In this document: piece after piece, positions 6,563 through 53,344 of the stretch
Layout: each line of letters starts with the position of its first letter
Numbering within the stretch: the first letter of the stretch is position 1
IMG/VR virus record: IMGVR_UViG_3300029705_000040
Span: 38,209 to 102,208 of that record
Reading direction: 5' to 3' (one strand)
DNA: 64,000 bases
Source: a virus
Taxonomy: Duplodnaviria; Heunggongvirae; Uroviricota; Caudoviricetes
Program-made: the position numbers and the translations under genes
The notes under the pieces: model-generated
Seen by the model: only the letters and a program-made list of their open reading frames with translations
Databases searched by the model: none
What the model was told of the DNA's origin: nothing

Positions 6563-6566
6563 ACTT

Positions 6567-8244: not shown

Positions 8245-8286
8245 CTTATAGGTTGATAACTTATCCTATAAAAGAGTTATTGAGGT

Positions 8287-8332: not shown

Positions 8333-8397
8333 CAAAGGTATGTAGAGTGTACCTTAAGCACTCCGCTATGTGCGCTAACAGCGAAAGCGTACTAATT

Positions 8398-8474
8398 GTC
8401 TCTTTGGTGTAATGGATTAGCATAACTCCCTACGAAGGAGCAGATAAGAGTTCAAATCTTTTAGGGGACGCCAG
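8398..8474 (+). tRNA. tRNA-Arg (ACG)
   Basis: Acceptor GTCTCTT/AGGGGAC-G-CCA, anticodon loop CTACGAA (same as E. coli Arg-ICG), T AAGAG-TTCAAAT-CTTTT. Confidence 0.75.
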
Positions 8475-8480
8475 TATATT

Positions 8481-8768
8481 ATGAAAGAAATTACAAAAAC
8501 GATAAAACTAAATAGAGATTTAAAACAGTCTTTCTATAATAAAAGAACGGCTAAAGTTAGGTTATTTGTTTGTCCTAAATATAAGGGTAAGCAAGATGTA
8601 CGAATATTTATAGAAAGTATTGATGATTATGCTTTGTTTCTTAATAGAGAATGTTATTCAGATGAAGAAGTAGAGTTAGCTTATAATGCGTTAAAAGTAA
8701 TTTTTGATAGTATACCAAAAGTTCTAACTAGACAATGGTGTAAAGAAAATAATTTCGAACTATATTAA
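8481..8768 (+). CDS. Hypothetical protein, 95 aa
   Basis: ORF immediately 3' of the tRNA; TAA stop. Confidence 0.55.
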   Translation: MKEITKTIKLNRDLKQSFYNKRTAKVRLFVCPKYKGKQDVRIFIESIDDYALFLNRECYSDEEVELAYNALKVIFDSIPKVLTRQWCKENNFELY

Positions 8769-8775
8769 ATAATAT

Positions 8776-8849
8776 GTCCGAATAGCCAAGCGGTAAGGCA
8801 GGGGACTGCAACTCCCCGATCATCTGTTCGAATCAGATTTCGGACTCCA
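8776..8849 (+). tRNA. tRNA-Cys (GCA)
   Basis: Acceptor GTCCGAA/TTCGGAC-T-CCA, anticodon GGGGA-CTGCAAC-TCCCC. Confidence 0.85.
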
Positions 8850-8911
8850 AATAAAATATAAGGGAGGATTTCATAATGCAGCTATAAAAGATTAATTTTA
8901 GGAGAACCATT

Positions 8912-9274
8912 ATGAAACAACGTCACAAATATTTTAGAAACCAGCGTTACAGAAATAAAGCTGAGCAAAAAGCTCTTATGACAGGTTGGGGTTATGGAAG
9001 ATATTATTATTTCATAACTAAAGAACCAGATCCTGCTAATCTTAGAGAGTGGCCTTTTACGCCTGACATTAAAGCTAGAGGTAAGGATTACTATTGTTAT
9101 TATTGCAATAAACCTACTGTTCCATATACTATTATGCAGGGCCAACGTAGAAGGACTTTTCCCAAATATTATAGAAATTATTGTAATAGACGTCTTAGAA
9201 AAACTTTTAAAGATGAAATTTATAATAATTGCTTATATAAGAAGCTTACTGAATATTGGTGGACTATTGATTAA
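8912..9274 (+). CDS. Hypothetical basic protein, 120 aa
   Basis: ORF with AGGAG RBS. Confidence 0.6.
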   Translation: MKQRHKYFRNQRYRNKAEQKALMTGWGYGRYYYFITKEPDPANLREWPFTPDIKARGKDYYCYYCNKPTVPYTIMQGQRRRTFPKYYRNYCNRRLRKTFKDEIYNNCLYKKLTEYWWTID

Positions 9275-9280
9275 AAATAG

Positions 9281-9309
9281 TTGATTTTTACTTAGATTTA
9301 TATTATAAT
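9281..9309 (+). promoter_or_regulatory. sigma70-like promoter TTGATT-N17-TATAAT (copy 3)
   Basis: TTGATT 9281-9286, TATAAT 9304-9309. Confidence 0.55.
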
Positions 9310-9356
9310 ATATGTATAAAATATAGATATGATTGATATAATCATCTCTATAATAT

Positions 9357-9431
9357 GCAGGATTAGCGTAGCGGATACGCAACCGCCTTCTAAGCGGTTA
9401 CAGATAGGTTCGACTCCTATATCCTGTACCA
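9357..9431 (+). tRNA. tRNA-Arg (TCT)
   Basis: Acceptor GCAGGAT/ATCCTGT-A-CCA, D GCGT/ACGC, anticodon ACCGC-CTTCTAA-GCGGT. Confidence 0.85.
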
Positions 9432-9481
9432 CTTTTTATTCAAAACTTTCTAAATAGAAGGAAAATCTTATAGGAAAATAG

Positions 9482-9510
9482 TTGATTTATTATATAAGAA
9501 AATATATAAT
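9482..9510 (+). promoter_or_regulatory. sigma70-like promoter TTGATT-N17-TATAAT (copy 4)
   Basis: TTGATT 9482-9487, TATAAT 9505-9510. Confidence 0.55.
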
Positions 9511-9542
9511 AATAATATAAAATATCTGATGAGGTTAAAGTT

Positions 9543-9812
9543 ATGAATAAAGAACATAACTGGATGAAATTTACTCTCAAAACTATTTATAATGAAGAAA
9601 TTGTTGTTATGTATGATAGCAACAGATATCCTTCTGATAAAGAAGATGAATTAAGAAAAGCGATAGATTTGGCCGATGTCTATAGAAATTCTTATTATAA
9701 TGATAGTGGAGTTATTGTTATGGATAAGAAAACAGCTGATTTTTGGTTTGGTGTCGTAGAAGAAGTTAAATGTAAAGCATTAGAGAAATATAGAAATGAA
9801 AGTATTTCCTAA
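9543..9812 (+). CDS. Hypothetical protein, 89 aa
   Basis: ORF with GAGG RBS. Confidence 0.55.
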   Translation: MNKEHNWMKFTLKTIYNEEIVVMYDSNRYPSDKEDELRKAIDLADVYRNSYYNDSGVIVMDKKTADFWFGVVEEVKCKALEKYRNESIS

Positions 9813-10056
9813 CTATGATCTATTATATGATGGTTCTATATGGAACTTAAATGATATTATCTATATGAAAATTCTTTCTTGTAGTAAACCAGGATATAAG
9901 TTTGAATTAGAATTTAGAATAAAAGAATTAGATACTTTGCTTTACTTTAATCATGTAGATAATGAATGGGATTACAAAATAGTTCAATATGAATTCATTG
10001 ATTTCTTAGCTAAATTTGTTAATCATTTATGTAAAGATTTAATCAATTTGAAATAA
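9796..10056 (+). CDS. Hypothetical protein, 86 aa
   Basis: ORF overlapping the previous stop. Confidence 0.5.
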   Translation: MKVFPNYDLLYDGSIWNLNDIIYMKILSCSKPGYKFELEFRIKELDTLLYFNHVDNEWDYKIVQYEFIDFLAKFVNHLCKDLINLK

Positions 10057-10161
10057 GTAAGACTATTCACTTAAGTAGAGAGGAAAATCTCACTTAGAAA
10101 TATAGATTTTGATATTATCAGTAAAGGTAATACCAGATAGGTGAAAAGCCTATCAAAACAT

Positions 10162-10237
10162 GCGCCTGTAGCTCAGGTGGTAGAGCACGTGACTTTTAAT
10201 CACGGTGTCCCGAGTTCGAGCCTCGGCAGGCGCACCA
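10162..10237 (+). tRNA. tRNA-Lys (TTT)
   Basis: Acceptor GCGCCTG/CAGGCGC-A-CCA, D GCTC/GAGC, anticodon CGTGA-CTTTTAA-TCACG. Confidence 0.9.
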
Positions 10238-10255
10238 AAATCACAGAGGTGTGTT

Positions 10256-10441
10256 ATGAGTAAAATTATGGAAGAACTTAATAGAATTTCTTTATTAGAA
10301 TCTATGTGTAAAAATCCTGTTACTGTAGATGCTATTAATAACTCTTATAAAGAAGATGCTGATGATAGTTTCGGTATTTTCGATACACCTGAAGAAGCTT
10401 TTGCAGCTATGGAAGAGAGTTGGAAAAATGAAAAAAATTGA
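10256..10441 (+). CDS. Small acidic protein; candidate antitoxin of the downstream RelE/YafQ-like toxin
   Basis: 61-aa ORF starting after the tRNA (track ORF trimmed); overlaps the toxin start by 14 nt. Confidence 0.4.
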   Translation: MSKIMEELNRISLLESMCKNPVTVDAINNSYKEDADDSFGIFDTPEEAFAAMEESWKNEKN

Positions 10442-10727
10442 GCTTAAAAAGTAGTTTACCAAAGATTTTGAAAAGTTATCAAAAACTGGTAAAATCGATA
10501 AGAAAAGTTTTTCTAATATAATTAATGATATAGCTGCTGGAAAACCTCTTGATCAAAAATATAGAGATCACGCTTTAGCTAAGCACTCTCCAAAAGAACT
10601 ATAGGGCTGTAGAGACTTCCATTATAAAAGCAATATATGTGTTGTTTATAAAGTTTTAGATGATTTAATTCAGCTTATAAGGATTGGAAGTCATCAAGAT
10701 CTAGGATTAACTGAGGATTTAAGATGA
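10428..10727 (+). CDS. RelE/YafQ-family type II toxin, 99 codons including 2 in-frame TAG
   Basis: Verified frame ATG 10428 to TGA 10725. Only internal stops are TAG at 10452 and 10602. Motifs ...KDFEKLSK..., DHALAKH, CRDFH, VVYKV..LIRIGSHQDL match YafQ/RelE. The first TAG aligns with Q of E. coli YafQ SGQYSKDV. Confidence 0.6.
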
Positions 10728-11383
10728 CCGATTTAGAAATATTTATACAAAACAATCAAGAATTAATCGATCTAAATACTAAAGAAAGCTGGATAGAAAT
10801 TTATGATTTGTTTGAAAGCTCTTATTATGATGATTATCTAGCTGGAGAATTAAGCAAATTATTAATTGATATTAATGCAGATCCATGTCATATAATCGGT
10901 TTTGTTCCTAGAAGATTTTTAATGGGTCAAAGCGATTTAACTAAATATGAAATACCTAAAAATGCATCTTATATAGGAATGAGTGCTTTCGAAGATACAG
11001 CTTTAGAAGAAGTATATATACCAGAAAGTGTTAGAGAGCTAGATTTCTTATGTTTTTCAGGAACTAAATTAAAAAAAGTATTTATACCGGATACTGTGCA
11101 TAGAATAGCAAATGGGGTATTTCATTCTTGCTTAAATCTAGAAGAAGTATTGATTGGTAAAGTATCGGAATTGGGCGAAGATGTTTTTGCTAATTGTGAG
11201 AATTTAACAAAATTAATTATTTGCGATAGTGTATCTCAACTTGATTCTAGCATTGTTAAAGGTTGTAAATCACTAAAAGAAATCGATTTTTTAGGAACGA
11301 TCGAAACATTTGAAAAGATTCGAGTAGGTTATACAGAATCATCTATAAAAATAAAATGCATAGATGGTGAAATTTCTTGGTAA
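10724..11383 (+). CDS. BspA-type leucine-rich repeat (LRR_5-like) protein
   Basis: Repeats of the form IP.SV..I...F..C..L..V.I across 219 aa; ATGA overlap with the toxin stop. Confidence 0.65.
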   Translation: MTDLEIFIQNNQELIDLNTKESWIEIYDLFESSYYDDYLAGELSKLLIDINADPCHIIGFVPRRFLMGQSDLTKYEIPKNASYIGMSAFEDTALEEVYIPESVRELDFLCFSGTKLKKVFIPDTVHRIANGVFHSCLNLEEVLIGKVSELGEDVFANCENLTKLIICDSVSQLDSSIVKGCKSLKEIDFLGTIETFEKIRVGYTESSIKIKCIDGEISW

Positions 11384-11480
11384 AATAATTAAAAATTAAG
11401 AAATTAGTCCTGTATAAATAATTGTTAAAAGAAAAACATTTAATTTAAGAAATTTTTACGCTAAATTAAATGTTATAAAT

Positions 11481-11565
11481 GCTGGTGTTCCCGTAGTGGC
11501 CAACCGGAACGGATTTGTAATCCGTCGCGAAAGCTTCGTGAGTTCGAATCTCACCACCAGCTCCA
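11481..11565 (+). tRNA. tRNA with anticodon TGT (Thr ACA?) but an 85-nt type II-like architecture
   Basis: Acceptor GCTGGTG/CACCAGC-T-CCA, anticodon ACGGA-TTTGTAA-TCCGT, extra hairpin CGAA-AGC-TTCG in the variable region. Confidence 0.5.
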
Positions 11566-11645
11566 GACGTCGAAATCAAAAGTAGACAAACAGATACGTT
11601 ATCTCAGAAATAATCTGTATAAACTATAAGAGATAACATAAAAAT

Positions 11646-11719
11646 GCCTCGATGGCTCAGCGGTAGAGCAGTCGCCTAGTAAGCGACAGGTCGTCGGTTC
11701 AAATCCGACTCGAGGCTCC
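11646..11719 (+). tRNA. tRNA with anticodon AGT (A34; Thr ACN reader?)
   Basis: Acceptor GCCTCGA/TCGAGGC-T-CCA, D GCTC/GAGC, anticodon GTCGC-CTAGTAA-GCGAC. Confidence 0.6.
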
Positions 11720-11727
11720 ACAATATA

Positions 11728-11804
11728 TTGGGGATTCGCCAAGCGGTAAGGCACGGGATTTTGATTCCCGCATTTCGGGTGTTCGAATCACTCATCCCCA
11801 GCCA
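11728..11804 (+). tRNA. tRNA-Gln (TTG)
   Basis: Acceptor TGGGGAT/ATCCCCA-G-CCA (U1-A72 as in bacterial Gln), anticodon CGGGA-TTTTGAT-TCCCG. Confidence 0.8.
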
Positions 11805-12101
11805 CCAGTGTATATATTTTTCATGAAATAAGTCTTATATATACATATATGGATAGAGACTTTGTCGGAGATATTACAACGGGTATACCCATAAGGGTGA
11901 GAGCATAAGAGTTAAACCGGCTTATTGCGAACCAGTGAACTTACGGACACAGAACGGTAACTGTAGGGAACGTAGGTAGACAACGAGTTCACTCCCTAAA
12001 GAACTAATGACCGATGCTTAGTATAATTAGTAGTACTTTCCCTTTCCTGGGAGAAACATCAGTGCAATTCTGGTAGTATCGACTTAATTAAGGAAAAACA
12101 A

Positions 12102-12290
12102 ATGATTTCACTTATTCTATTATTTCTTGAACTGATATATTTATATGTATATTATATCGTAAAAAGTAAAAGTATAGAGAAGTCACTAATGTATATAGAT
12201 AATTATATTATAAATGGTAGAAAACTTCTCACTAATACTGGTTTAGAAATTATTAGAAGTAGAGTAAATTCTAAAAGAAGTAAATTTTAA
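12102..12290 (+). CDS. Small hydrophobic protein, 62 aa
   Basis: ORF with AGGAAAAA RBS. Confidence 0.4.
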   Translation: MISLILLFLELIYLYVYYIVKSKSIEKSLMYIDNYIINGRKLLTNTGLEIIRSRVNSKRSKF

Positions 12291-12300
12291 TGAGGTGTTT

Positions 12301-12669
12301 ATGTATTCGCATCTAAATGAGCAATTATTGCTAGAGATGGCTGAAATTGGTCGTATTGATGGATATAAGATACTAATTTATGGCAGTGAAGGACCTACAC
12401 AACATTTTCATGTAGAAAATAAAGAAAAGAAAATATCAAGTTGTGTAAAAATTTGTGAAGATGGTTATTTTAGTCATGGAACACATAAAGATACTTTAGA
12501 TAATAAATTAGTTAAAAAATTAAAAGAATTTCTTAATGCTCCTCATAAATTTTTTGGAAAACATGGTTATACTAATTGGCAAATAATTTGTATTTATTGG
12601 AATGATAATAACCCAGATTATTTAATTGATTTAGATACAGTTAAGATGCCTTTGTATAATAATTTATAA
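12301..12669 (+). CDS. Hypothetical protein, 122 aa
   Basis: ORF; GAGG at 12292-12295 precedes ATG 12301. Confidence 0.55.
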   Translation: MYSHLNEQLLLEMAEIGRIDGYKILIYGSEGPTQHFHVENKEKKISSCVKICEDGYFSHGTHKDTLDNKLVKKLKEFLNAPHKFFGKHGYTNWQIICIYWNDNNPDYLIDLDTVKMPLYNNL

Positions 12670-12747
12670 TTTTGAAATATTGCTCTGCTGGCTGTTTTTA
12701 GTATCAATTGATTCAGGACTAAAACTGCAACTGGAGCCTTATATTAT

Positions 12748-12822
12748 GGTGGGTTCGTATATCGGTTAGTACACAGCACTGTCACTGCTGAAGGACGGGT
12801 TCAACTCCCGTACCTACCGCCA
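12748..12822 (+). tRNA. tRNA-Asp (GTC)
   Basis: Acceptor GGTGGGT/ACCTACC-G-CCA, anticodon CAGCA-CTGTCAC-TGCTG. Confidence 0.8.
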
Positions 12823-13187
12823 TAAAACAACAGTAAGTCCAATACTTAGTAGGCTACGTAGTACTTTGATTGGCTAGTTGTTAAGTATTCGTAGTTCGTC
12901 GAAATAAAACAAACGAATTAACCGTAAGTAACGGCGAGCGAAAACGGTTAGCCAGTAGTAAGGACAATCTTGCGAAGGCACAACTGATACATATGACAGC
13001 TTCATATGTCGTAGCATAGAAAAAGTGCTCATGATGTTTTACGTAAAGTTACATCCACTGAATTCGCTCATCTAATGAGCAGCTAGTAACACTTACTTTT
13101 GATAACAGAGAACAAATAGATATTGAAACCCAGTGTTACAAATTACTTTATAAACAGCTATTGAAACTTACTTTTATCAAATTATTC

Positions 13188-13272
13188 TGCAGGGTAGCTC
13201 AGTAATCGTTAAAGAGCGCTAATCTTTGCTAAGATTAGAGGTCGTTGGTATGAAATCCATCCCCCGCCGCCA
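13188..13272 (+). other. Aberrant tRNA-Ala(TGC)-derived element with an 8-nt anticodon loop
   Basis: D-arm TAGCTCAG...GAGCG and variable AGGTC match E. coli tRNA-Ala. Anticodon stem CTAATC/GATTAG has loop TTTGCTAA (8 nt). T-loop TATGAAAT (8 nt). Acceptor TGCAGGG/CCCCGCC has 2 mismatches. G-CCA encoded. Confidence 0.4.
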
Positions 13273-13404
13273 TTTAACAGTTTCAAAATTCTGTATTAAG
13301 AATAGAGCTATTATTACTTACTTTTTGAAATGGTTATTATAGGTTCGATTCCTATACTGAGCCTTAGGCTTAGTTGTTAGTAATATAACTTATCTATTCT
13401 ATAT

Positions 13405-13481
13405 AGCTGGGTAGAGCAGTCAGGTAGCTCGCTAGGCTCATAACCTAGAGGTCCAGGGTTCGAATCCCTGCCAAGCAACCA
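13405..13481 (+). tRNA. tRNA-Met or Ile2 (CAT), with A1:A72 mismatch (initiator-like feature)
   Basis: D GAGC/GCTC, anticodon CTAGG-CTCATAA-CCTAG, T CAGGG-TTCGAAT-CCCTG, CCA. Confidence 0.65.
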
Positions 13482-13531
13482 CTCTGCGTTTTTGGCTAGT
13501 CTTCGCGAAGAAAAATAAACTAGCATAATAT

Positions 13532-13608
13532 TGGGGCGTAGCGCAGTTTGGTAGCGCGCCTGATTTGGGATCAGGAAGTCGTGGGTTCAAGTCCCGTCGC
13601 CCCAACCA
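13532..13608 (+). tRNA. tRNA-Pro (TGG)
   Basis: Acceptor TGGGGCG/CGCCCCA-A-CCA, D GCGC/GCGC, anticodon CCTGA-TTTGGGA-TCAGG (G37). Confidence 0.85.
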
Positions 13609-13856
13609 CACCAATTAACAATTATAAAACATATTTTGTACTTGTTAATTTGAGATGTACCTATAATAGGGTCGCTACTGTTGCAGCAGTAGGAAAACAA
13701 CATAAAGCGTAGTATTAAAAGAACGATTAATTAAAATAGATGCACACGGTAGCGCGCCAAAAGGCTCAGTTATAATGGTATTGAGAGACGTGGGTTTCAC
13801 TTGGAGAATCGGGAGGGTGAACGCTTTATTTTATATATTTTTAGTTGAATAATGAA

Positions 13857-13986
13857 GGTGCCACGAAGGATCTAATACCGTAACCAGTCGGTTCCTCATG
13901 TCCATATAACGCCTTTAAACTAAGGGGGTTGGAAACAGGGTTGGATTGTAAAAATAGCTGTGGTAAATGGAATGTGATGAACAGCC
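13857..13986 (+). repeat. Structured non-coding element, copy 1 (GGTGCCACGAAG...AGCTGTGGTAAATGGA..GATGAACAGCC)
   Basis: Shares its 5' 12-mer and a ~45-nt 3' block with 14296-14381. Confidence 0.5.
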
Positions 13987-14295
13987 TTTAATTATAAATA
14001 AAATAGCTGATGTACTAGTGTACAAACAGTTTCTCAGGTCGATTCGGAATCGGCTTGTGCATAAACAATTCTCTTAGGCTTACTATTGTTCGGAACTTTA
14101 GTAGCACACTTAAGAGCTTAGAGAAGTCATTGTTTGTAAGTGGAAAGATAATACGCACGTATTAAATCAAGACTCATTTTCAATAAAAGAAACTTACCAC
14201 ACCACTAACTTATTTTTAATTACCGCGGGAATCATTATTAAGTTGAGTGGAAATTTGAATTTAAGCATTTCAACAATTCAATAATCCCTATAGAC

Positions 14296-14381
14296 GGTGC
14301 CACGAAGCCGGCTGACAAGCCGAGGGGTCGCGTTGGATCTGTATAACAGCAGCTGTGGTAAATGGAGCGAAATGAACAGCC
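14296..14381 (+). repeat. Structured non-coding element, copy 2
   Basis: GGTGCCACGAAG...GTTGGATCTGTATAACAGCAGCTGTGGTAAATGGAGCGAAATGAACAGCC. Confidence 0.5.
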
Positions 14382-14716
14382 GTTAATATATTTTTTATAA
14401 GGGAGACTATTGAGATGTTTGGAATGGATCAATGGAATTTTCTTGCATATGCTTTATTAATTAATTATATGGAAGAAAATAAAAAGCTATTTGGAAGGAT
14501 TTGAGCAACTATCTTTCCAAAATATGGGCCGTTATATCATGTTAGCAGATTACCTGATTTGCACTCAGGAGGCGACCGGGGCAGCACCGGTACGGTCCAC
14601 CAGAACTAAATATAAGGTAGCAAAAGAAGTCATGAGCTTTTGAGATAACAATACTACTATTATTGAGCTTAAATTTAGTATATCGCAAATATTTTTCATA
14701 GTAGGAGAAATTATAA

Positions 14717-15643
14717 ATGCAAAGTTTTCAATGTATATGTGGAAAAATTTTTTCATCTAAACATGCTTTAAGCGGGCATCACAGTCATTGCGTAGAATAT
14801 TTAACTAATATTGGAAGATTACACATACGGCAATAGGTGGATGCTACAAATGGAGCTAAAAGTGGTGCTACACTAAAAGCAAAAAGCATAGAAAGAAAAG
14901 CGGCTAATATGCTAGCTTGGGTATAGCAGTAGAATACATGTGAAAAATGTGGTAAGATTATGCTTGAGAAATTTGGATCTGGTAGATTTTGCTCCAGAGC
15001 ATGTGCTAATAGTCATGTGAAACATGGAAAATATACAAACGAAAACGTAAAAAATAGAAAAACAAAGTCAAATAAAAAATCACACAATCAACTACTTAAA
15101 GAGTATATTTTAAGTCCACCGAAATGTTTGATTTGTGGTAAAACTCTTGCATATGAGAAACGTGCTAGAAAAACATGTTCAAAAAATTGTTGTAGTAAAT
15201 ACCTCTCGAAGTAGAAAAAAGATCTAGTTGAAAAAGTTGGCGGTAACTTAAATCAATATGGTACGCGAGGTCACGCTAGATATGGTACATATAAGGGGTT
15301 TCACTGCGATTCTTCTTATGAGCTCGCGTTCGTAATATATTGTCTAGATCATAATATTATATTTTAGAGAAACCATAAGGGATTTTCTTATAATTTTCAA
15401 AATAAAAATTATAAATATTATCCAGACTTTATTATAAATGATAAATACATAGAAATAAAAAATTACAAAAGCGATCGCGTTATTGCTAAGACTAATTAGT
15501 TTCCAATAGATAAGATTTTAGTAATTCTTTATTTATCTGATATAAAAATCTGTATAGATTATTGTATAAAGGTTTATGGTAAAAATTTTACTGAACTCTA
15601 TGATAAAGATAAACCATCATGGATGGATAAGAAAAATAGTTGA
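14717..15643 (+). CDS. PD-(D/E)XK/C2H2 freestanding nuclease, paralog 2; contains 6 in-frame TAG codons
   Basis: Verified frame ATG 14717 to TGA 15641. Only internal stops are TAG at 14834, 14924, 14930, 15212, 15365 and 15497. The C-terminus FHCDSSYELAFVIYCLDHNIIF*RN...YYPDFII...EIKNY...PSWMDK aligns with 1533-2306, and the TAG sits at the same column. Confidence 0.6.
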
Positions 15644-15681
15644 TGCAGATGCCGCGTGTTCGACTCACGTCAGCTCCACCA
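15640..15681 (+). other. tRNA 3'-half-like fragment overlapping the nuclease stop
   Basis: GCGTG-TTCGACT-CACGT + CAGCTCC-A-CCA; no matching 5' half found in the window. Confidence 0.3.
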
Positions 15682-15782
15682 TTAAATCGAATACAGGTAC
15701 TTGCGAGATGTTATACTGTTGTAAGCAGTGTTTAATAACAGTGTTAACAACAATATAACATTTTCCTGTATATTTAATAAAT

Positions 15783-15858
15783 GTGGGTGTAACTCAATTG
15801 GTAGAGTGCTAGCTTGCCAAGCTGGATGTTGCGGGTTCGAACCCCGTCACTCACTCCA
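15783..15858 (+). tRNA. tRNA-Gly (GCC)
   Basis: Acceptor GTGGGTG/CACTCAC-T-CCA, D ACTC/GAGT, anticodon CTAGC-TTGCCAA-GCTGG. Confidence 0.8.
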
Positions 15859-15983
15859 GGCCATATGTGCAAATGATTAGAAATAACCAGTGATGGCTCC
15901 AGAGATGTTTTATGGTTGAACTCATATAATAAAAACCATTATCGCCTTTATAAGTAATGCACATTGCGAAAATGAGGCTACTG

Positions 15984-16059
15984 CGAGAGTTATATCAATT
16001 GGGAGATAAGCTGCCTTACAAGCAGAAGGTTACAGGTTCAAGTCCTGTACTCTCGACCA
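15984..16059 (+). tRNA. tRNA-Val (TAC)
   Basis: Acceptor CGAGAGT/ACTCTCG-A-CCA, D TATC/GATA, anticodon loop CTTACAA. Confidence 0.8.
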
Positions 16060-16410
16060 TTAGGAAAACTACAACGGGATAGGAGACCCCCGCTACAGAG
16101 ATAACCAATGCATTCGTTGAAAAATACGTGTCATCTAGAGTTGAGTTGGTGAGTGGGAGGGCACAGAGCTAAACGATAATATGTTAAAGTAAACTGTTGA
16201 TACTTATTATTTTATGCTCCGAGACAGTGTGGTCGCAAGACGTGACATCTTAAGTGCAGAGGTATGTGGATGTTGTAGCAGATTAGGGTTTAGATGCATC
16301 CGAGAATTGGGTTTGCCCTAATCAAGTATGGGGTTGCTGGTGTAACGTTAGCACGACAGATTGTGGCTCTGTAAGACTAAGTTAGATTCTTAGGCTTCCC
16401 ACCATTAAAT

Positions 16411-16497
<87 letters not shown>

Positions 16498-16597
16498 AGA
16501 TTGTTTAGTTTCTGTGTTATACTTTTTATCAAACTTATACATAATATATATGTAGAAGATAATTCTTCTAAAATATTTTAAGTGAGGTATAAGAAAC

Positions 16598-16969
16598 ATG
16601 GACAACAAAAAAGAAACTCAAACTCAAGAAACATCATTTAGAGGAATTCCCATTCCTGAAATTGAAAAGAAGCATGATTATAAAGTAGCTGATTCTCAGA
16701 AAGTTATCGATAAGATAATGGCTATGTCTCCAGAAGAACAGAAAACAGTTACTCTTGAAAGCATCCATTACGAAGATAAAGAAATTAGCGAAGTAAAGCT
16801 CTCTACTGGTGATATTATTCCTGTAGAAGCTGCTATTGCACTTGCTGAAAGTAAATTATTAAATGGATTTAGAGCTGGTAGAAATGCTAGAGGCGACCGC
16901 ACTTTAAGAGCTACCCCTAATTATGCTGGTAAGGAAAAGAATTCTATCCACAAATTACCTGTATTCTGA
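16598..16969 (+). CDS. Hypothetical protein, 123 aa
   Basis: ORF with GAGG RBS; TGA stop. Confidence 0.65.
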   Translation: MDNKKETQTQETSFRGIPIPEIEKKHDYKVADSQKVIDKIMAMSPEEQKTVTLESIHYEDKEISEVKLSTGDIIPVEAAIALAESKLLNGFRAGRNARGDRTLRATPNYAGKEKNSIHKLPVF

Positions 16970-17012
16970 GATGAAAGGCTAGAGGAATATAATTTCTCTA
17001 GTTTACATATAA

Positions 17013-17089
17013 GCCTTCGTGGCTCAACTGGTTAGAGCGACCGGTTCATACCCGGTAGATTGGGAGTTCAAGTCTCTCCGAAGGCACCA
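17013..17089 (+). tRNA. tRNA-Met (CAT), elongator-like
   Basis: Acceptor GCCTTCG/CGAAGGC-A-CCA, anticodon ACCGG-TTCATAC-CCGGT. Confidence 0.8.
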
Positions 17090-17165
17090 GCAGGTATAGT
17101 GTAACGGATTAGCACATCAGACTACGGATCTGATAATATGGGTTCGAATCCTATTACCTGTACCA
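17090..17165 (+). tRNA. Second tRNA-Arg-like (ACG; loop CTACGGA)
   Basis: Acceptor GCAGGTA/TACCTGT-A-CCA, anticodon TCAGA-CTACGGA-TCTGA; directly abuts the previous tRNA. Confidence 0.6.
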
Positions 17166-26536: not shown

Positions 26537-26572
26537 AATACATAATTACATTAAAGCGAGGATTATTTAATT

Positions 26573-27424
26573 ATGATTTTTATTTATAAACTAATGTTTC
26601 CGAATAATAAAGTTTATATAGGGTAGACAAATAATTTAGATATACGTTGGATAAATGGTGGTAAGGGGTATAAAAGGTGTCCATACGTTTGGAATGCTAT
26701 ACAAAAATACAGCTGGACTGCTATAGAAAAAAGTATTCTAGAAGTCTGCAATGACAGGGATGAAGCTAATACTAAAGAAGTTTACTGGATAGCAGCATAC
26801 AATTCAGCTGATTATAGATTCGGTTATAATATCTAGTCAGGTGGAAAGTATAGAGAACGTAGTCCAGAAGCGAATGCACGAATTAAAGAGAAGAATTCTA
26901 ACAAAATTGTAAGCGAGGAAACTCGTAAAAAGATATCAAAAGCTAATAAAGGTAAAATAAGATCAGCTGAGTATAGAGAAGCTCAATCAAACAGATTGAA
27001 AGCTTACTATCGAATGCATGAGTCAAAATCTAAAGGTAAACCTGGTCATAAGACAAAGGGTTGCTTAGGCTAGCATTGGTATAATAATGGAAAGATATCA
27101 ATTCTATGTTTTGAAGACCAAATTCCAGATGGATATGTAAAAGGAAGAATTAATGTTAAATCAGGCTATAAAATGTCTGAAGACATTAAGCAAAAATATT
27201 CTTAGAGCCATAAAGGTAAGCACATAGGAAAAAACAATAGCAATGCGAAAGCTGTTGTTAAATTAGATTTAAGTTATAATTTTATAGAAAAATATGATAC
27301 TATAAAAGAAGCTTCTGAAGCAAATAATAATATTAGCGGGATTGGGGCCTGTGCACATTACAGACAGAAATCAAGCGGAGGGTTTATTTGGAGATTTTAT
27401 GATGAATGGAAAGATACAAAATAA
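26573..27424 (+). CDS. GIY-YIG homing endonuclease with NUMOD3-like repeats; 4 in-frame TAG codons
   Basis: Verified frame. IYKLMFPNNKVYIG*TNNLDIRW, GYNI*SGG, SEETRKKISKANKGK, GCLG*HWYNNG, KYS*SHKGK; TAG at 26624, 26834, 27071, 27203; TAA 27422. Confidence 0.7.
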
Positions 27425-30614: not shown

Positions 30615-31184
30615 ATGTATGTATATGGTTATGATGCTACGTTTGATGGATATTCTTCAGAAACACTTTCCGTCGATGTAGATTTGAAAATTAGAATGAG
30701 TTGCGCTGAGTTTAATGCTTTTACGAAAGTTAATCAATCAGGTGTTATTGATGAAAATGGACTTAAGAAAAGTTTGACTAATAACATGGATAATGCTTGC
30801 TCGAAACCTGTTAATCCTAGATTTGGTGGTGCATTCTTTATTGATGGAAAATATGTTTACATAAAAAATATTATTGTAAACAAGCCTGCAGTTGTTGTAT
30901 TCTGGAGCGATGGTACTAAAACTAAAGCTGTTTGTGATGAAAAAGATACTTTTGATCCTAATTTTGGTTTAACTTTAGCTACTTTAAAGAAATTTGCTGG
31001 ATCAGAAGCAACATCTAAATTATTCGAAGATTGGGGTTTAAATTCTAAAGAAGAAAAAGCTAATATAAGTCTTAAAGATCTTCGCAAAAAAGAAAAAGAA
31101 GCTAAGCAAGCAGAAAGCTTTATGGAAGGTCTCGCTAGATTTTCAGCTTTAGCAGCAGAAGTTTGCCCCGTACTTGAGGACTGA
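30615..31184 (+). CDS. Hypothetical protein, 189 aa
   Basis: ORF. Confidence 0.6.
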   Translation: MYVYGYDATFDGYSSETLSVDVDLKIRMSCAEFNAFTKVNQSGVIDENGLKKSLTNNMDNACSKPVNPRFGGAFFIDGKYVYIKNIIVNKPAVVVFWSDGTKTKAVCDEKDTFDPNFGLTLATLKKFAGSEATSKLFEDWGLNSKEEKANISLKDLRKKEKEAKQAESFMEGLARFSALAAEVCPVLED

Positions 31185-31186
31185 TC

Positions 31187-31360
31187 ATGATATTTCAATT
31201 AGGTGATGTTATCACAAATAAATTAAAACCTGGGCCTCATTTTATGATTACCGAAATCACAGATAAGGGTATTGCTGTAGGATTACAACTAGATGGCGAA
31301 GATGAGAATCAAAAAGTATATTTTTCTCTCGAAGACATGTGGGTATTTAAAAAAGTATAA
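31187..31360 (+). CDS. Hypothetical protein, 57 aa
   Basis: ORF. Confidence 0.4.
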   Translation: MIFQLGDVITNKLKPGPHFMITEITDKGIAVGLQLDGEDENQKVYFSLEDMWVFKKV

Positions 31361-31433
31361 AAATAATCAGGTTTATTCCTGTTAACATATATATAACATA
31401 TAAAAACAAAAAAGATTGGAGGTATTTTATTTT

Positions 31434-31556
31434 ATGTTGTATGGTATTTTAATTGCTGTAGTAACAATTGGGTTGCTAGTAGGTGGTATTGTTCTCGCTG
31501 TTCGAGGTTATGGTGATGGCAGTAATGGTAAACTTGCGAGTGGTGTGTGTGTGTGA
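31434..31556 (+). CDS. N-terminal transmembrane segment ORF ending in a (GT)6 repeat; probably the true 5' part of the SPFH gene
   Basis: GGAGG 31418 precedes ATG 31434; MLYGILIAVVTIGLLVGGIVLAV...; (GT)6 at 31543-31554; TGA 31554. Confidence 0.45.
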   Translation: MLYGILIAVVTIGLLVGGIVLAVRGYGDGSNGKLASGVCV

Positions 31557-32473
31557 GCATCGTCAGCTTTTTGCTGTTTTTAGCGTTACCGTTCAGTTTT
31601 CATACTATCGATTCTGGTGAAATCGCTGTTGTTAAGGAAATGGGTAAAATTATTGATACCCGAGAAGCTGGTACCCATTTCGATTTCTGGATGGTGCGTA
31701 CATATGATAAGTATGACACTAAAGTCAGACAAATTGACATAACGACAGCAGCATACACAGCTGGTGATAAAGCAACGAATGTCAATGAAGATAATAAAGT
31801 ATCAGCTACCAGTGAGACTAAAGCTCAACTTCAACCTATTGACTTACAACTGACAGTACATTATCAAATTAATAAAGAAGAAGTAAAAACTATTTCTTTA
31901 GATTACGGTAATTTATCAGCTTTAGAAGGTAGAATTTCAAGCGTTGTTACCGCAACAGTTAAAGAAGTAGTTAAGAAGTATGAAGCAGCTCAGCTTATTT
32001 CTGAGAGAGATATCTTAGCAACAGAAGTTCGAGAAGCTATTAACTCAGCTTTAGGTGAAAATTATCATGTAACGGTTAAAAACGTAGCTCTTACTAACAT
32101 TGATTTCTCTGATGCATTCGAACAATCTGTAGAACAATCGATGATTGCTCAGCAAGAATTAGTTAAGGCTGAAGCTGAAGCTAAAAAGCTCTTAATTGAT
32201 GCTGAAAATAAAGTTAAAATTGCTGAACAGGAAGCTGCTGCTAAAAAAGCTGCTGCTCAAGGTGAAGCAGAAGCTGTGAAGATTGCAGCAGAAGCAGAAG
32301 CTAATGCTTTGGCAACTATCCAATCAGCTTGGGATGCTATCGATCCAGCGGTCAAGGAAATCATGCTTAGAGAAATGGCTATTGAAAAATGGGATGGTAA
32401 ACTTCCTGACACTATGGTAGGTTCTGAATTCATTGAGTATCTTTTAGGTGCTCTTCAGAGTAGCGGTAATTAA
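31547..32473 (+). CDS. SPFH/band-7 (HflK/C-stomatin-like) membrane protein
   Basis: IDSGEIAVVKEMGKI..., Ala/Glu-rich coiled coil. No ATG start; the ORF begins with GTG inside the GT repeat, frame +2 relative to 31434. Confidence 0.7.
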   Translation: MCVSIVSFLLFLALPFSFHTIDSGEIAVVKEMGKIIDTREAGTHFDFWMVRTYDKYDTKVRQIDITTAAYTAGDKATNVNEDNKVSATSETKAQLQPIDLQLTVHYQINKEEVKTISLDYGNLSALEGRISSVVTATVKEVVKKYEAAQLISERDILATEVREAINSALGENYHVTVKNVALTNIDFSDAFEQSVEQSMIAQQELVKAEAEAKKLLIDAENKVKIAEQEAAAKKAAAQGEAEAVKIAAEAEANALATIQSAWDAIDPAVKEIMLREMAIEKWDGKLPDTMVGSEFIEYLLGALQSSGN

Positions 32474-32517
32474 AAAAAAAATATTTAAGAAAAATAAGTC
32501 TTCTAGGTTAAATCTAG

Positions 32518-32546
32518 TTGACTTATTTTTTATTTTATATTATAAT
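32518..32546 (+). promoter_or_regulatory. sigma70-like promoter TTGACT-N17-TATAAT (copy 9)
   Basis: TTGACT 32518-32523, TATAAT 32541-32546. Confidence 0.55.
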
Positions 32547-32646
32547 ATTAATGTAAAAATAATTTTTAACATAAGTCTTTTACTTTTAATTTAATGTAAG
32601 GGAAATATAATAAAATATAAAGGAAAAATACATAGAATTAACGATT

Positions 32647-33105
32647 ATGATTGTTTCAGATGTTATTGATAAAGTAATTCCAGAATTGCATGTAAAGTAT
32701 GATAAAGAAATACTTTTAACGTGCTTTAATATAGTTGAAACCGATATGGCTCTAAATTATTTTTTGCTCTTTGCGCAAGAAACTTTTGATGATGTATCAG
32801 AAGTGAAGTTCTCAGAGTTAAAACATAATATAACGTCCATAATTAAAGTAAACTGTAAGTATGTAGAAACCGAATATGGTATAAGAGCTAAAGGATCTGA
32901 TAAAATAAGCTATATAGAATATAGTTACTTACCTAAACCTAAAGGTTTTTACGATACATGTGAGTATAAAGAAGATTTATTAAATTGTTACATAAGTTGT
33001 ATTATATCTGAGTTTTTTGTTATGCAAGGCTTTTACGATGAAGCAGATTTATGGCAACGTAGATATAAAAAATATATTAAGGAATTTTGTGATGATCATG
33101 CTTGA
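32647..33105 (+). CDS. Hypothetical protein, 152 aa
   Basis: ORF. Confidence 0.55.
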   Translation: MIVSDVIDKVIPELHVKYDKEILLTCFNIVETDMALNYFLLFAQETFDDVSEVKFSELKHNITSIIKVNCKYVETEYGIRAKGSDKISYIEYSYLPKPKGFYDTCEYKEDLLNCYISCIISEFFVMQGFYDEADLWQRRYKKYIKEFCDDHA

Positions 33106-34227: not shown

Positions 34228-34241
34228 GAGAGGAATAATCT

Positions 34242-34802
34242 ATGGATTGTATATATGAAACTTATGATGCAGAAGGTAAACACTGCTCTAAAAGCGGATT
34301 CGGACGCGGTGTAGGAAACAGATGTCACATGGATTACGCTAATTATTGCACCTGGTATACCCCAGAAAAACCTACTGTAATTGATAGCTTTCAAGGTAAT
34401 TATGCTTTCTTAAGCAACTTTTATGAAAATAGAGATCAATATGTAAAATGCGATCTAGGACTTAAATATAAATCAGTAGAAGCAGCATTTCAAGCGAGCA
34501 AAACACTTGATAAGAAAATGAGAAAAGTATTTACCGAATTAAGTCCTAGTGCAGCAAAATATCTTGGCCGACACATACAATTAAGAGAAGACTGGGAACA
34601 AATTAAAGATACGGTTATGTATCAACTTGTTATGTACAAGTTTACCCATTGTGAAGAAATAAGAGAATTATTATTAGAAACCGATGACATAGAGCTTGTG
34701 GAAGGTAATTGGTGGAATGATAAATACTGGGGAGTTTGTAATGGTGAGGGTCAAAATAAACTCGGTAAAATTCTAATGAAAGTGCGGGAGGAACTCAAGT
34801 AA
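34242..34802 (+). CDS. NADAR-domain (YbiA-like) protein
   Basis: FLSNFYEN...VEAAFQASK...VMYQLVMYKF...ELLLETDDIELVEGNWWNDKYWGVCNGEGQNKLGKILMKVR fits the YbiA/DUF1768 pattern. Confidence 0.7.
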   Translation: MDCIYETYDAEGKHCSKSGFGRGVGNRCHMDYANYCTWYTPEKPTVIDSFQGNYAFLSNFYENRDQYVKCDLGLKYKSVEAAFQASKTLDKKMRKVFTELSPSAAKYLGRHIQLREDWEQIKDTVMYQLVMYKFTHCEEIRELLLETDDIELVEGNWWNDKYWGVCNGEGQNKLGKILMKVREELK

Positions 34803-46230: not shown

Positions 46231-47460
46231 ATGTTAAATGCAAGAGGTGTGCGTGAGCTCGCATATGTTGTGCAAGTAGATTCTGTAGAATCTATGGTTG
46301 GCTATGATAGTCTTGAAATAGCTACAGTAAACGGTTGGAAATGTGTAGTCGGAAAGGGATCTATGAAAGCTGGTGACCTAGCTATATATTTCGAAATTGA
46401 TTCTAAGCTTCCTGATGTTGAACCCTTTAATCTTAATTCTGCTTTAGTAAAATATAAGTTCAAGATTAAGACTCAACGTTTTGGTAGAGGTGGTATTCCT
46501 TATATCTCTCAAGGTTTGCTTATGTCTCTAACCGAATTTGGTGATAAGTTAAAGAATATTAAACTAGGCGATTTCCTAACTGAAAAACTTAATATTACAT
46601 ATTACGAAGTAGAAGATAATACTAGAAAAGCTAATAAAGATAAGTATACTTCCATGAGGGACCGTCATAAGAAGTTTTTCAAGACGAAGTTTGGTAGATG
46701 GCTCATGCGCCATGAGTTTACTAGAAAGATTTGTTTCCTATTCTTAGGTAAGAAGAAGGATAAGAAGACGGATTGGCCTAACTGGGTAGTTAAAACTGAT
46801 GAGGAAAGATGTCAGAACTGCTTTAATCAGATGAAGGCACTCAATAAGAAGTGGTTAACTACTGAAAAGATCGATGGTTCTTCTGCTACATATACGATGA
46901 AAAATACTAGAAATAAGAAAAATCGTGAGATGCTTGTCTGCTCTAGAAATGTTGTTTTCAACGCACCAGAAAAAGAAGCTAGAAATTTCTATAAAGATAC
47001 TGATGGTAACATTTGGCTAGAAATGGCTGCGAAGTATGATATGAAAACTGTTTTAGAAACTATTTTAGATAACGATCCTAATCTAGAATTTGTAACAATA
47101 CAGGGCGAAGTTTATGGCGGAAAGATTCAGAAGAGAAATTATGGTCCTGAGCATAGACTTGCTATTTTCAATGTCATACTTAAGCAAAATGGAAAAGCTC
47201 CAGTTCGTATGAATCCTGTTGAAATGGAAAATTACATTTTTGATCTCAATAGTAAGTATGAATTTAATCTAACAACAGTTCCTGTGTTAGAATCTGGGTT
47301 TGAACTTCCTGAAACTGTTGAGGAACTTTTGGAAATAGCTACTGGAAATTCTGTTATAGATGGTGGTCCTAGAGAGGGTATTGTTTTACGTACAGAAGAT
47401 GGTGTAAACAGTTTCAAAGCTGTTTCGAACCAATTCTTGTTAGATTTCCATAACAACTAA
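46231..47460 (+). CDS. ATP-dependent RNA ligase-like nucleotidyltransferase with an N-terminal OB/tRNA-binding-like domain
   Basis: Nucleotidyltransferase motif I, KIDGSS; N-terminal AYVVQVDSVESMVGYDSLEIATVNGWKCVVGKG resembles tRNA-binding OB folds. Confidence 0.65.
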   Translation: MLNARGVRELAYVVQVDSVESMVGYDSLEIATVNGWKCVVGKGSMKAGDLAIYFEIDSKLPDVEPFNLNSALVKYKFKIKTQRFGRGGIPYISQGLLMSLTEFGDKLKNIKLGDFLTEKLNITYYEVEDNTRKANKDKYTSMRDRHKKFFKTKFGRWLMRHEFTRKICFLFLGKKKDKKTDWPNWVVKTDEERCQNCFNQMKALNKKWLTTEKIDGSSATYTMKNTRNKKNREMLVCSRNVVFNAPEKEARNFYKDTDGNIWLEMAAKYDMKTVLETILDNDPNLEFVTIQGEVYGGKIQKRNYGPEHRLAIFNVILKQNGKAPVRMNPVEMENYIFDLNSKYEFNLTTVPVLESGFELPETVEELLEIATGNSVIDGGPREGIVLRTEDGVNSFKAVSNQFLLDFHNN

Positions 47461-47473
47461 AAAAAATTATTAG

Positions 47474-47505
47474 AGAATCAGCTAGAAATAGTTGATTCTT
47501 TTCTT
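47474..47505 (+). terminator. Hairpin (AGAATCA/TGATTCT) + T-run overlapping the -35 of promoter copy 12
   Basis: Inverted repeat 47474-47480 / 47493-47499. Confidence 0.4.
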
Positions 47506-47520
47506 TATTTATCATATAAT
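47492..47520 (+). promoter_or_regulatory. sigma70-like promoter TTGATT-N17-TATAAT (copy 12)
   Basis: TTGATT 47492-47497, TATAAT 47515-47520. Confidence 0.55.
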
Positions 47521-47539
47521 AATATAGAGGAATAAGATT

Positions 47540-47959
47540 ATGTTTAAATTGCTTACGGATTCAGAAAAAATAGATGTTCAAAATACTATTTTAAATGTTC
47601 AAGAGCTTATTACTAAAACAAAAGAGACTAAACTTTATGATAATTTAATAGATGCAGTAGAATGCATGCAATTATTATTAAGTTTGGTGATTAAAAGCGA
47701 AAAAATGCTGACAGAAGCTATTGATCCAGATACTAAAACAAACTATTCTGTAAAACTTTCAGAAGAAGATATTTGGGACCTTCTAGAAAGTGATGAGTTG
47801 TGTAATAATGAAATTGGTCTAAATTACATAGATGAGCTTCCAACTAGCATCGATACTATAAGTAGATTGAGAGAAATTAAAATGAAAAATGTATATCTAC
47901 AAAAAGACTTAGAAGATCTTATGTATGATATGATTGCGAGGTTATTATATGTCGAATAA
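47540..47959 (+). CDS. Hypothetical protein, 139 aa
   Basis: AGAGGA RBS. Confidence 0.55.
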   Translation: MFKLLTDSEKIDVQNTILNVQELITKTKETKLYDNLIDAVECMQLLLSLVIKSEKMLTEAIDPDTKTNYSVKLSEEDIWDLLESDELCNNEIGLNYIDELPTSIDTISRLREIKMKNVYLQKDLEDLMYDMIARLLYVE

Positions 47960-52046: not shown

Positions 52047-53344
52047 ATGGCAGGTAATAATTCTATACAACTTCTGCGTGGTAGTTCAACTGCTAGAAAA
52101 GCTAGCACTGAAAAATTGCTCTCCGGTCAACCTTTCTACGAAACAGATACAAATTTGTTTTATGTAGGGGGGGGGGCAACTTAAGCTCTGCTACACCTAT
52201 TAAGGTTAGCACTCTCACAATCTAGAGAAATGGTACAACTGTTGGTACCTTTAATGGTTAGACAGCTCAAACTATTAATATCTAGGATACTGATACTAAC
52301 ACAGACTTAAAAACAGCATCAGGAAATACTTCAAGCAAAATCTACTTAATTGGTGCTACTAGCCAATCTAGTTCTGGTCAAACAACATACTCTCATGATA
52401 CAGCATATGTTGGAACAGATGGTTGTTTATACAGTAATAGTAGTAAGGTTGCTGTAAGAACAGAAGTACCATATATTTTAAAAGATAACTCTTATTTAGT
52501 TATTTATAAAAACGATTCTTCTACATTAGAGTCAAATTGTATATATACAAATTATCCATCATACACAATAACTTTTAATGCGAATGGTGGCAGCTGTTCA
52601 ACAACATCGAGTAAGACATTTAGAGGAAAATTATCTAGCTTACCTACACCCACTATGAGTGGTGGTACATTCTTAGGTTGGGGCACGTCATCTTCTGCAA
52701 CTAGCTATGTAAGCTCTAGCAAAGTTTATAGCTCTAACACAACACTTTATGCTATTTGGAAAATTGATAGTACATCAAGTGGATCAGGTAACGATTATGA
52801 AGGTACTTATCAGTTAATAGATGATGAAAGTCCACAAAACGTGTTAGCTACTGATGATTATGTTATCATAGCCGGCACCACATCATCTGACAGTATGTTA
52901 TATTTTATGGGTAATGATTTTTCTGGTAATTATCCATATAACTATTCTTTAGATCCTTCTGACCAACTAACTTTAGATGGCTCTAGCAGTATAGCTATAT
53001 TTAAAGTTACTTATAACGATGGTTAGATAGCTTTACAACTTGCAAATGGTGAGTATTCAGGACAATATTTAGCAAATACTTCGAATAAATATTTAAAACT
53101 TCAATCAGATGAATGTTTTTGGGATATCTCAGAACATGGGTCTCCAGCGTACGGCGGTTTGCAAGTTGGTTCTAATAGAACCAAGCTCATATGTCAGGAC
53201 ACAGGCAACCTTATAGTAGTTCCTACTAGTATGCAAGCTAATAGCAACAACAGCTATAGTACAACATTCTCGTGTTATACTAATCCAAGTAGTAGTTATC
53301 TTGATACGACTCAAATATTCAGGCTGATCACAGATTCTAACTAA
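52047..53344 (+). CDS. Tail-fibre-like receptor-binding protein with Listeria-Bacteroides repeat domain. Reading frame interrupted twice near the 5' end and carrying 4 in-frame TAG codons
   Basis: N-terminus MAGNNSIQLLRGSSTARKASTEKLLSGQPFYETDTNLFYVGGG (typical tail-fibre N-terminal motif) in frame 0 up to the G9 tract 52167-52175. Body from 52184 to TAA 53342 lies in frame +2 (…KVSTLTI*RNGTTVGTFNG*TAQTINI*DTDTNT…ITFNANGGSCSTTSSKTFRGKLSSLPTPTMSGGTFLGWGTSSSATSYVSSSKVYSSNTTLYAIW…) with no ATG before 52655. TAG at 52223, 52259, 52283 and 53024. Removing one G from the G9 tract and one T from 52198-52201 would restore a single frame. Confidence 0.55.

Follow-up and report, generated by a model that had tools for sequence, protein, structure and literature searches.

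The gene considered here lies in a 64,000-nucleotide (nt) stretch of viral DNA (hereafter the window), which corresponds to positions 38,209 to 102,208 of IMG/VR record IMGVR_UViG_3300029705_000040, from a virus of the Caudoviricetes. It occupies positions 31434–32473 of the window (+ strand), encodes an SPFH/prohibitin-like membrane protein and is interrupted by a +2 frameshift at a coding microsatellite, a perfect run of six GT units, (GT)6, at 31543–31554 (+ strand). This is one unit more than in the in-frame (GT)5 allele, with which the gene has 345 codons. The start codon, ATG 31434, is preceded at 11 nt by a Shine–Dalgarno (SD) sequence, GGAGG (31418–31422, + strand), that is invariant in 7/7 aligned lineages and ranks among the strongest ribosome-binding sites nearby (its duplex with the anti-SD is computed at -10.7 kcal/mol, versus a local median of about -6.3). 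The 5' fragment (31434–31556, + strand) is an open reading frame (ORF) of 40 amino acids (aa), whose product, P0125, reads directly from the sequence as MLYGILIAVVTIGLLVGGIVLAVRGYGDGSNGKLASGVCV followed by the stop. It comprises a first transmembrane helix (TM1), a loop and the first four residues (GVCV) of a second helix (TM2), and ends at TGA 31554–31556, GTGTGTGTGTGT being the (GT)6 tract at 31543–31554, after which comes G 31555. The 3' fragment (31553–32473, + strand) encodes the remainder of TM2, the SPFH domain, a coiled coil and a conserved C-terminal WDGKLP motif, and ends at TAA 32471–32473. It is 306 aa long when counted from GTG 31553, which overlaps the upstream stop as GTGA, and 308 aa from GTG 31547, while its first in-frame ATG, at 31640, lies beyond both hydrophobic segments.

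Computed deletion of one GT unit joins the two frames exactly, giving the predicted junction ...ASGVCVSIVSF... (peptide ASGVCVSIVSFLLF...). The tract therefore shows the frame switching asked of contingency loci, since (GT)5 yields a 345-aa ORF and (GT)6 a 40-aa ORF. Nor is it expected by chance, as (GT)6 occurs once in 64 kb and in none of 100 dinucleotide-preserving shuffles (first-order Markov expectation, 0.0014 per strand), and no other dinucleotide tract in the window exceeds four units. The initial annotation of this DNA had described an ORF at 31434 with a strong ribosome-binding site and a transmembrane helix that stops at a TGA in the repeat, an SPFH ORF continuing in another frame from a GTG within the repeat, and the fusion of both upon loss of one GT unit. 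These statements are borne out by, respectively, the GGAGG duplex and a hydropathy peak at residues 1–23, the frame open from GTG 31547 with its Band_7 domain, and both the computation above and naturally occurring fused alleles (P0001, P0124 and P0123).

That these ORFs belong together is clear from their homologs, which were sought with the conceptual fusion, that is, the window gene minus one GT unit. This query returned more than 1,500 homologs, and all those aligned (22/22, at 46–99% identity) are single ORFs of 321–371 aa with a TM1-loop-TM2-SPFH organisation. Their common layout is a hydrophobic helix, a short Gly/Asp/Lys loop (10–14 residues longer in two of them), a second hydrophobic helix, the SPFH domain, a long Ala/Glu/Lys-rich helix and, near the C-terminus, a conserved WDGKLP. 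Near the N-terminus G4, L6, L21, G25 and G37 are nearly invariant across the aligned homologs. Rather than a small gene of unrelated origin, the 40-aa ORF is thus the genuine start of the protein, and the two ORFs are parts of a single gene for an SPFH membrane protein. What would have spoken against the initial annotation, namely an SPFH gene with its own ATG downstream of an unrelated small ORF, was looked for in relatives, and these show a single ORF instead.

Family membership is well supported. The second ORF matches Pfam Band_7 (PF01145) with 89.3 bits (cut-off 23.6, E = 4e-25) over profile positions 2–174 of 176, the SPFH protein matches phrog_200 at 1.4e-42, and its sequence matches among solved structures (PDB) are prohibitins, with a best E of 5e-12. 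The AlphaFold2 model, with a mean predicted local distance difference test score (pLDDT) of 69.6, has helices at residues 2–28 and 31–50, a beta/alpha SPFH domain and a long helix at 226–301, and its top Foldseek matches are subunits of the prohibitin, HflK/C, stomatin and erlin cages (E = 1e-14 to 1e-10). Hydropathy of the fused protein peaks at residues 1–23 and 34–55, so the break at residue 40/41 falls within the second hydrophobic segment. The protein scores only 24.4 bits against the HflC equivalog model (TIGR01932 hflC, NCBIfam), whose cut-off is 134.4, and PADLOC gave no match for it. Megablast of 31000–32800 against 50,697 phage records found no match, tblastn found only distant SPFH genes (at most 29% identity) in Fusobacterium, Yersinia, Acinetobacter and Rhizobium phages, and related loci in IMG/VR were limited to relatives at no more than 38% identity, which are uninformative on the repeat. 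When the 40-aa peptide was used as query, no homolog other than itself was retrieved. One relative, L097, has a mosaic SPFH gene (1501–2535, P0052), whose first ~100 codons are nearly identical to those of the window gene, and whose remainder is of another subfamily and differs in its C-terminal region; this structure implies recombination within the SPFH gene.

In bacteria, an SPFH gene often has a gene for a small membrane protein as its partner, and gene callers do annotate two genes here, which would fit a true operon of a small NfeD-like membrane partner followed by an SPFH gene. We consider this vanishingly improbable, because the 40-aa ORF is colinear and identical with the N-terminus of the single-ORF alleles, has no match in a Pfam search, and is separated from the second ORF by nothing other than a 2-nt repeat-unit difference. 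An NfeD-SPFH operon is refuted by the fused alleles.

Repeat alleles in near-identical genomes

The distribution of the two alleles was established by exact-protein look-ups, on which all allele counts rest, and tract lengths were taken from assembled consensus sequences. At least 24 contigs (32 index blocks), up to 262 kb in length, encode the exact 40-aa product. The seven occurrences displayed trace to as many samples and to three sources, that is, JGI (3300018494, 3300024270 and 3300028242), ENA (assemblies ERZ27248306, ERZ27248370 and ERZ27248446) and Logan (SRR7032251). Every retrieved locus of this product has (GT)6, which is thus present in the window and in L002–L008, and these loci are 99.3–100% identical to the window over 2.3–6.1 kb. 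The initial annotation had counted an indel error among its explanations, and dinucleotide repeats may indeed stutter in library PCR, to the point that one genome alone could not exclude it. The recurrence of (GT)6 across samples, sources and three assembly pipelines, in several contigs that are 100% identical to the window over 4–6 kb, excludes a sequencing or assembly error in the window, a reading that we rate as highly improbable.

In-frame read-through with (GT)5 is found in three contigs (fused products P0001, P0124 and P0123): L001 from SRR24752792, which is 99.2% identical to the window, L009 from SRR25030043, at 97%, and L010/L093, a 258,782-nt contig from JGI 3300018495 that belongs to the same clone as the window. 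Only five and six units were observed. Neither the products predicted for (GT)1, 2, 3, 4, 7, 8 and 9 nor the exact intact (GT)5 product of the window gene are present among ~15 billion proteins. Viral and metagenome contig collections gave no match to a pattern of the repeat flanks separated by a gap of variable length, nor did metagenome contigs to an exact 25-mer, but this phage is not contained in the collections scanned. The repeat-number variation that the initial annotation wanted checked in related genomes is real, since (GT)5 and (GT)6 occur in an otherwise near-identical background of 20.8 kb.

This background deserves closer inspection. Between L093 and window positions 21434–42227 there are three differences in 20,794 nt, namely a single-nucleotide polymorphism at 27108, the GT unit and a G-to-T change at 32225, and two of the three lie in the SPFH gene. 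The last of them (32225, + strand) turns GAA into TAA, creating a premature stop, E264*, that is seen in the one clone member with (GT)5 (L010/L093; L093 10001–10792). With it the protein loses its C-terminal quarter and hence the invariant W319/G321/L323/P324 motif. If the GT difference is taken as given, a stop would arise in this 1,038-nt gene from either of the two remaining changes with a probability of ~0.0035. No intact SPFH allele was found within the near-clonal population, whose sole (GT)5 genome carries E264*. Two independent disruptions in an otherwise identical background point to relaxed selection or selection for loss, not to balanced ON/OFF switching.

How the tract came about was examined by aligning the DNA of seven lineages at the tract codons. 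In L012, which is ~74% identical, the codons read GGTGTCATTGGA and encode GVIG without a repeat. In L011, at ~79%, they read GGTGTTTGTGTG and encode GVCV with an interrupted repeat. In L097, whose N-terminus is almost identical, they read GGTATATGCGTG and encode GICV, again without a repeat. A perfect (GT)5, encoding GVCV, is confined to L009, L001 and L010, and the window clone has the perfect (GT)6, one unit longer, which encodes GVCV and then the stop. The tract is thus not conserved in related lineages, L097, L011 and L012 having an interrupted one or none. The lack of a perfect tract in the more distant relatives makes the microsatellite young and lineage-specific, and argues against an evolved switch, since a device under selection is expected to persist in relatives.

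A second simple-sequence repeat (SSR), an A10 tract at 32472–32481 (+ strand) that overlaps the last two bases of the SPFH stop TAA, provides an internal control. It is identical in all clone members and differs in the 97% and 99% relatives, and its invariance in the clone means that the consensus sequences give no sign of general SSR instability, even though A10 should be at least as prone to slippage as the GT tract. The difference between five and six units fits a single historical mutational event.

What the six-unit allele may express

Several routes by which a (GT)6 gene might still yield SPFH protein have to be weighed. The initial annotation had raised slippery control, and programmed recoding would require ribosomes to shift on the GU repeat, for example by a +2 hop of tRNA-Val from GUG 31551 to GUG 31553 with UGA in the A site. 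Such a hop is formally possible on inspection of the sequence, with perfect re-pairing for a GUG-reading tRNA two bases downstream and beside a stop codon, and the phage encodes a tRNA-Val(UAC) at 15984–16059. Low-level hops at repeat/stop sites of this kind are known in E. coli, but +2 events normally occur at ~1% or less. The site has no X_XXY_YYZ slippery heptamer, and the tRNA-Val in the P site would have nothing to pair with after slipping by -1. A stimulatory structure is lacking in the RNA both downstream (z = 0.26 versus shuffles) and across the site (z = 0.05). None of the 22 aligned homologs has a frameshift arrangement, and close relatives are plainly in frame with (GT)5. Translational recoding at this site is thus very unlikely, and that suggestion is not upheld.

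Reinitiation at GTG 31553 is more plausible from the sequence than a +2 hop. An SD-like GGTG lies 7 nt upstream of this codon, with a duplex of -6.1 kcal/mol that is about the median of 42 neighbouring genes, and overlapping stop-start junctions are common in the window genome. Neighbouring genes start with ATG in 40 of 42 cases and with GTG in two, and the reinitiation product would begin inside the second membrane helix, without a charged flank. (GT)6 is therefore expected to be a null or strongly weakened allele, which would give at most a low level of protein devoid of TM1.

Two further candidates were rejected. Read-through or recoding of the TGA is not credible, since TGA ends 22 of 69 long ORFs and frame 0 meets a TAG nine codons later, far from the SPFH frame. 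ATG 31640 is a poor main start, with an AAGGA only 1 nt from it and a product that would have neither membrane helix.

Origin and significance of the allele

The explanation that we favour, with a probability of roughly 60%, is that slipped-strand expansion produced a null or weakened allele of a dispensable accessory SPFH gene, in other words a young mutational accident rather than an evolved switch. The gene is a single, conserved phage gene for an SPFH membrane scaffold protein of the prohibitin/HflK-C-like type, anchored by two helices. Synonymous and conservative changes in the immediate lineage would then have made the Gly-Val-Cys-Val codons at the start of TM2 into a perfect (GT)5, to which slipped-strand mispairing during replication would have added a unit, giving (GT)6 and a +2 frameshift. 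As it stands, the first 40 codons end at a TGA and the other 306–308 are left without an ATG, with the weak SD-like GGTG as their sole signal. Any residual product would lack TM1 and would arise through termination-reinitiation at GTG 31553 (GTGA). This allele is inherited and predominates in a phage of ~260 kb that reads TAG as sense and whose population is nearly clonal and widely sampled, in which the SPFH gene appears to be under relaxed or negative selection. The tract should leave the lesion reversible in principle.

Several observations pull the other way: (i) (GT)5 and (GT)6 occur in an otherwise identical background in JGI 3300018494 and 3300018495, two samples with consecutive identifiers, and their coexistence is also expected from a reversible switch, (ii) the change within the clone may run from five to six units or from six to five, (iii) a poly-G tract at 52167–52176 varies in a related lineage, and this phage group does show SSR length changes in genes, (iv) the (GT)6 ORF carries no further defect downstream of the break and (v) the GTGA overlap with its SD-like element of median strength resembles the many native coupled junctions, and the split gene may accordingly still be expressed and of use.

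The first and third of these observations bear on an adaptive contingency locus, in which (GT)n would be a hypermutable and reversible ON/OFF switch. It would enable a fraction of the phages to do without the SPFH protein and thereby avoid, for instance, a host defence or a cost linked to this protein, by analogy with the homopolymer loci of T2 agt and T4 rIIA. (GT)6 reaches the cut-off of at least six units used for candidate phase-variable dinucleotide loci (PMC6321876), contingency loci in accessory genes of phages reportedly help them to evade defences (10.1101/2025.10.21.683753), a G10 tract is present in a surface-protein gene of this genome (G11 and G10 in two contigs of a related lineage), and the two independent disruptions suggest selection for the OFF state. 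These points have to be set against a perfect tract that is missing in relatives keeping the same amino acids, two lengths only among ~15 billion proteins, variation that can be placed as one mutational event in the genealogy, and the invariant A10 tract nearby. Moreover, in the clone there are at least 24 OFF contigs to one with (GT)5, the latter broken by a nonsense mutation, and no ON allele was seen. A switch is thus possible but doubtful. Phase-variable control, as put forward in the initial annotation, is possible but improbable, there being only two tract lengths, no perfect tract in more distant relatives and no intact allele in the clone.

The last two observations bear on a split gene that is functional or at least tolerated, the 40-aa TM1 peptide and a 306-aa TM2-SPFH protein being made by coupling at GTGA and keeping, together or separately, a useful function. 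Such a reading gains from the junction itself and from the downstream ORF, which is identical and undamaged in all (GT)6 contigs (P0121 on 16, P0122 on five). It also gains from L096, where an independent 1-nt deletion in the loop between TM1 and TM2 leaves an ATG-started remainder. The break, however, falls within the second hydrophobic segment, which thereby loses the positively charged flank on its N-terminal side, few genes here start with GTG, and TM1 is fused in all intact homologs. The clone is too uniform to reveal purifying selection on the fragment. As for L096, it is a single short contig, and the search favours N-terminal breaks, since a long remaining ORF ranks high. Taken together, we regard a useful split gene as unlikely.

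The L096 lesion (1434–1520) is itself worth describing. It changes TGGGG to TGGG in the loop between the helices of a P0019-like SPFH lineage that is ~59% identical, and it splits TM1 from the rest, with a restart at an ATG created at the site. The contig is 3.4 kb long, and the deletion could be an error.

The locus is a natural, documented case of a repeat-slippage allele that has spread through a widely sampled phage population. For annotation, the practical consequence is that a single SPFH gene with a frameshift should be entered in place of a micropeptide gene followed by a GTG-started gene. A slippage allele combined with a second, independent knock-out hints that SPFH loss is neutral or advantageous in the current host, and the availability of intact, split and C-terminally truncated alleles in nearly identical backgrounds is a starting point for understanding what SPFH proteins do in phages. 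Should active switching turn out to be true, the locus would rank among the first dinucleotide contingency loci described in phages.

The genome around the gene is that of a large phage, with 28 tRNA genes (463–17165), RNA ligase, NAMPT and polynucleotide-kinase-like genes, and related contigs of 258–262 kb. Its long + strand ORFs stop at TAA (46), TGA (22) and TAG (one), and several ORFs are open only if TAG is read as sense, such as those at 1533–2306, 10260–10727, 14717–15643, 26555–27424, 47408–47959 and 52112–53344. An in-frame TAG at 52259 aligns with CAG (Gln) in L094 and L095, and TAG appears to be a sense codon, in keeping with TAG-to-Gln (code 15) recoding in a subset of genes. Recoding of this type has been described for gut phages (10.1101/2021.08.26.457843; PMC9523058). 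The SPFH locus is unaffected, because its relevant stops are TGA and TAA. ARAGORN found no suppressor tRNA among the tRNA genes of the window. A 110-nt Rfam tRNA match at 6355–6464 (35 bits), which ARAGORN does not call and which has a 32-nt insertion at the place of the anticodon arm, could represent a tRNA that has an intron or is otherwise unusual, and might be the TAG decoder that the array lacks.

The poly-G tract is one of the features of this genome (32% GC) that merits attention. It consists of G10 at 52167–52176, within a gene at 52047–53344, and separates a 45-aa N-terminal ORF from a body of ~390 codons in another frame. This body encodes a Listeria-Bacteroides repeat (Flg_new) domain and is interrupted by in-frame TAG codons at four places, and with G11 or G8 the two frames would become one. 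In a related lineage there is G11 (joined) in L094 (1370–1549) and G10 in L095 (892–1029), while all 18 of the 18 contigs carrying the exact poly-G gene product of the window have G10. Unlike the GT tract, the poly-G tract is conserved across lineages, and of the two it is therefore the likelier to be a genuine switch, or else a site of -1 slippage, in what would be a surface or host-recognition protein. A more speculative proposal, to which we give little credence at present, is that both tracts are contingency loci, reversible slippage switching off a membrane scaffold at one and altering a host-recognition protein at the other. If this were true, it would provide sub-populations ready for escape from host defence or a change of receptor, and would add dinucleotide repeats and gut/environmental jumbo phages to the range over which phage contingency loci are known.

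In several lineages, the SPFH gene is found among genes related to nicotinamide adenine dinucleotide (NAD). These are NAMPT and NADAR in the window (60251–61558 and ~34240–34800), a NadR-like CTP_transf/AAA_28 gene and a PnuC-like transporter in L012 (4142–5952), and NAPRTase and NAD synthase in L096 (1–1403). This suggests that the surroundings of the SPFH gene are a variable accessory region for NAD salvage.

Relation to known systems

The closest parallels are bacterial genes whose phase variation depends on SSR. As in these genes, a dinucleotide tract lies in the 5' part of an ORF for a membrane protein, a change of one unit breaks the frame, and both states are found in near-identical genomes. 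The window tract just reaches the threshold of at least six units applied by PhasomeIt (PMC6321876), and a coding dinucleotide precedent exists in the (AG)12 of the Mycoplasma mycoides MmyCI methyltransferase (PMC3498834). What sets the GT tract apart is that it is very short (5–6 units), has two lengths only, is not conserved and has an OFF allele that is nearly fixed in the clone.

Among phages, the best comparison is with the contingency loci described by Gomez, Barrick & Waters (preprint, 2025), homopolymer tracts of at least six bases in T2 agt and T4 rIIA (10.1101/2025.10.21.683753). Reversion at these tracts was measured at ~1000-fold above single-nucleotide changes, with TgvAB and McrA/BC as selective agents (10.1101/2025.10.21.683753). 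The common point is that slippage-prone repeats in non-essential phage genes give reversible null alleles. In contrast, the GT tract is a dinucleotide and its phage is uncultivated.

As for the protein, the N-terminal membrane anchor, the SPFH domain and the long Ala/Glu/Lys-rich helix are those of the SPFH/Band 7 family. HflK/C and prohibitin have one N-terminal hydrophobic helix whereas the window protein has two, and the latter is far below the HflC equivalog cut-off and without a known partner protease. SPFH ORFs had been noted earlier in T4-like phages (PMC1524935), and they are also present in Fusobacterium phages.

Finally, with programmed frameshifting (dnaX -1, prfB +1 and tRNA hopping), the locus shares two overlapping frames for one protein and a stop at the shift site. 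It differs from these systems by the absence of a canonical slippery site, of a stimulator and of conservation, and by close relatives that are in frame. The locus is to be filed as a genuine, inherited, SSR-generated frameshift allele of an SPFH gene, which is ordinary in its mechanism.

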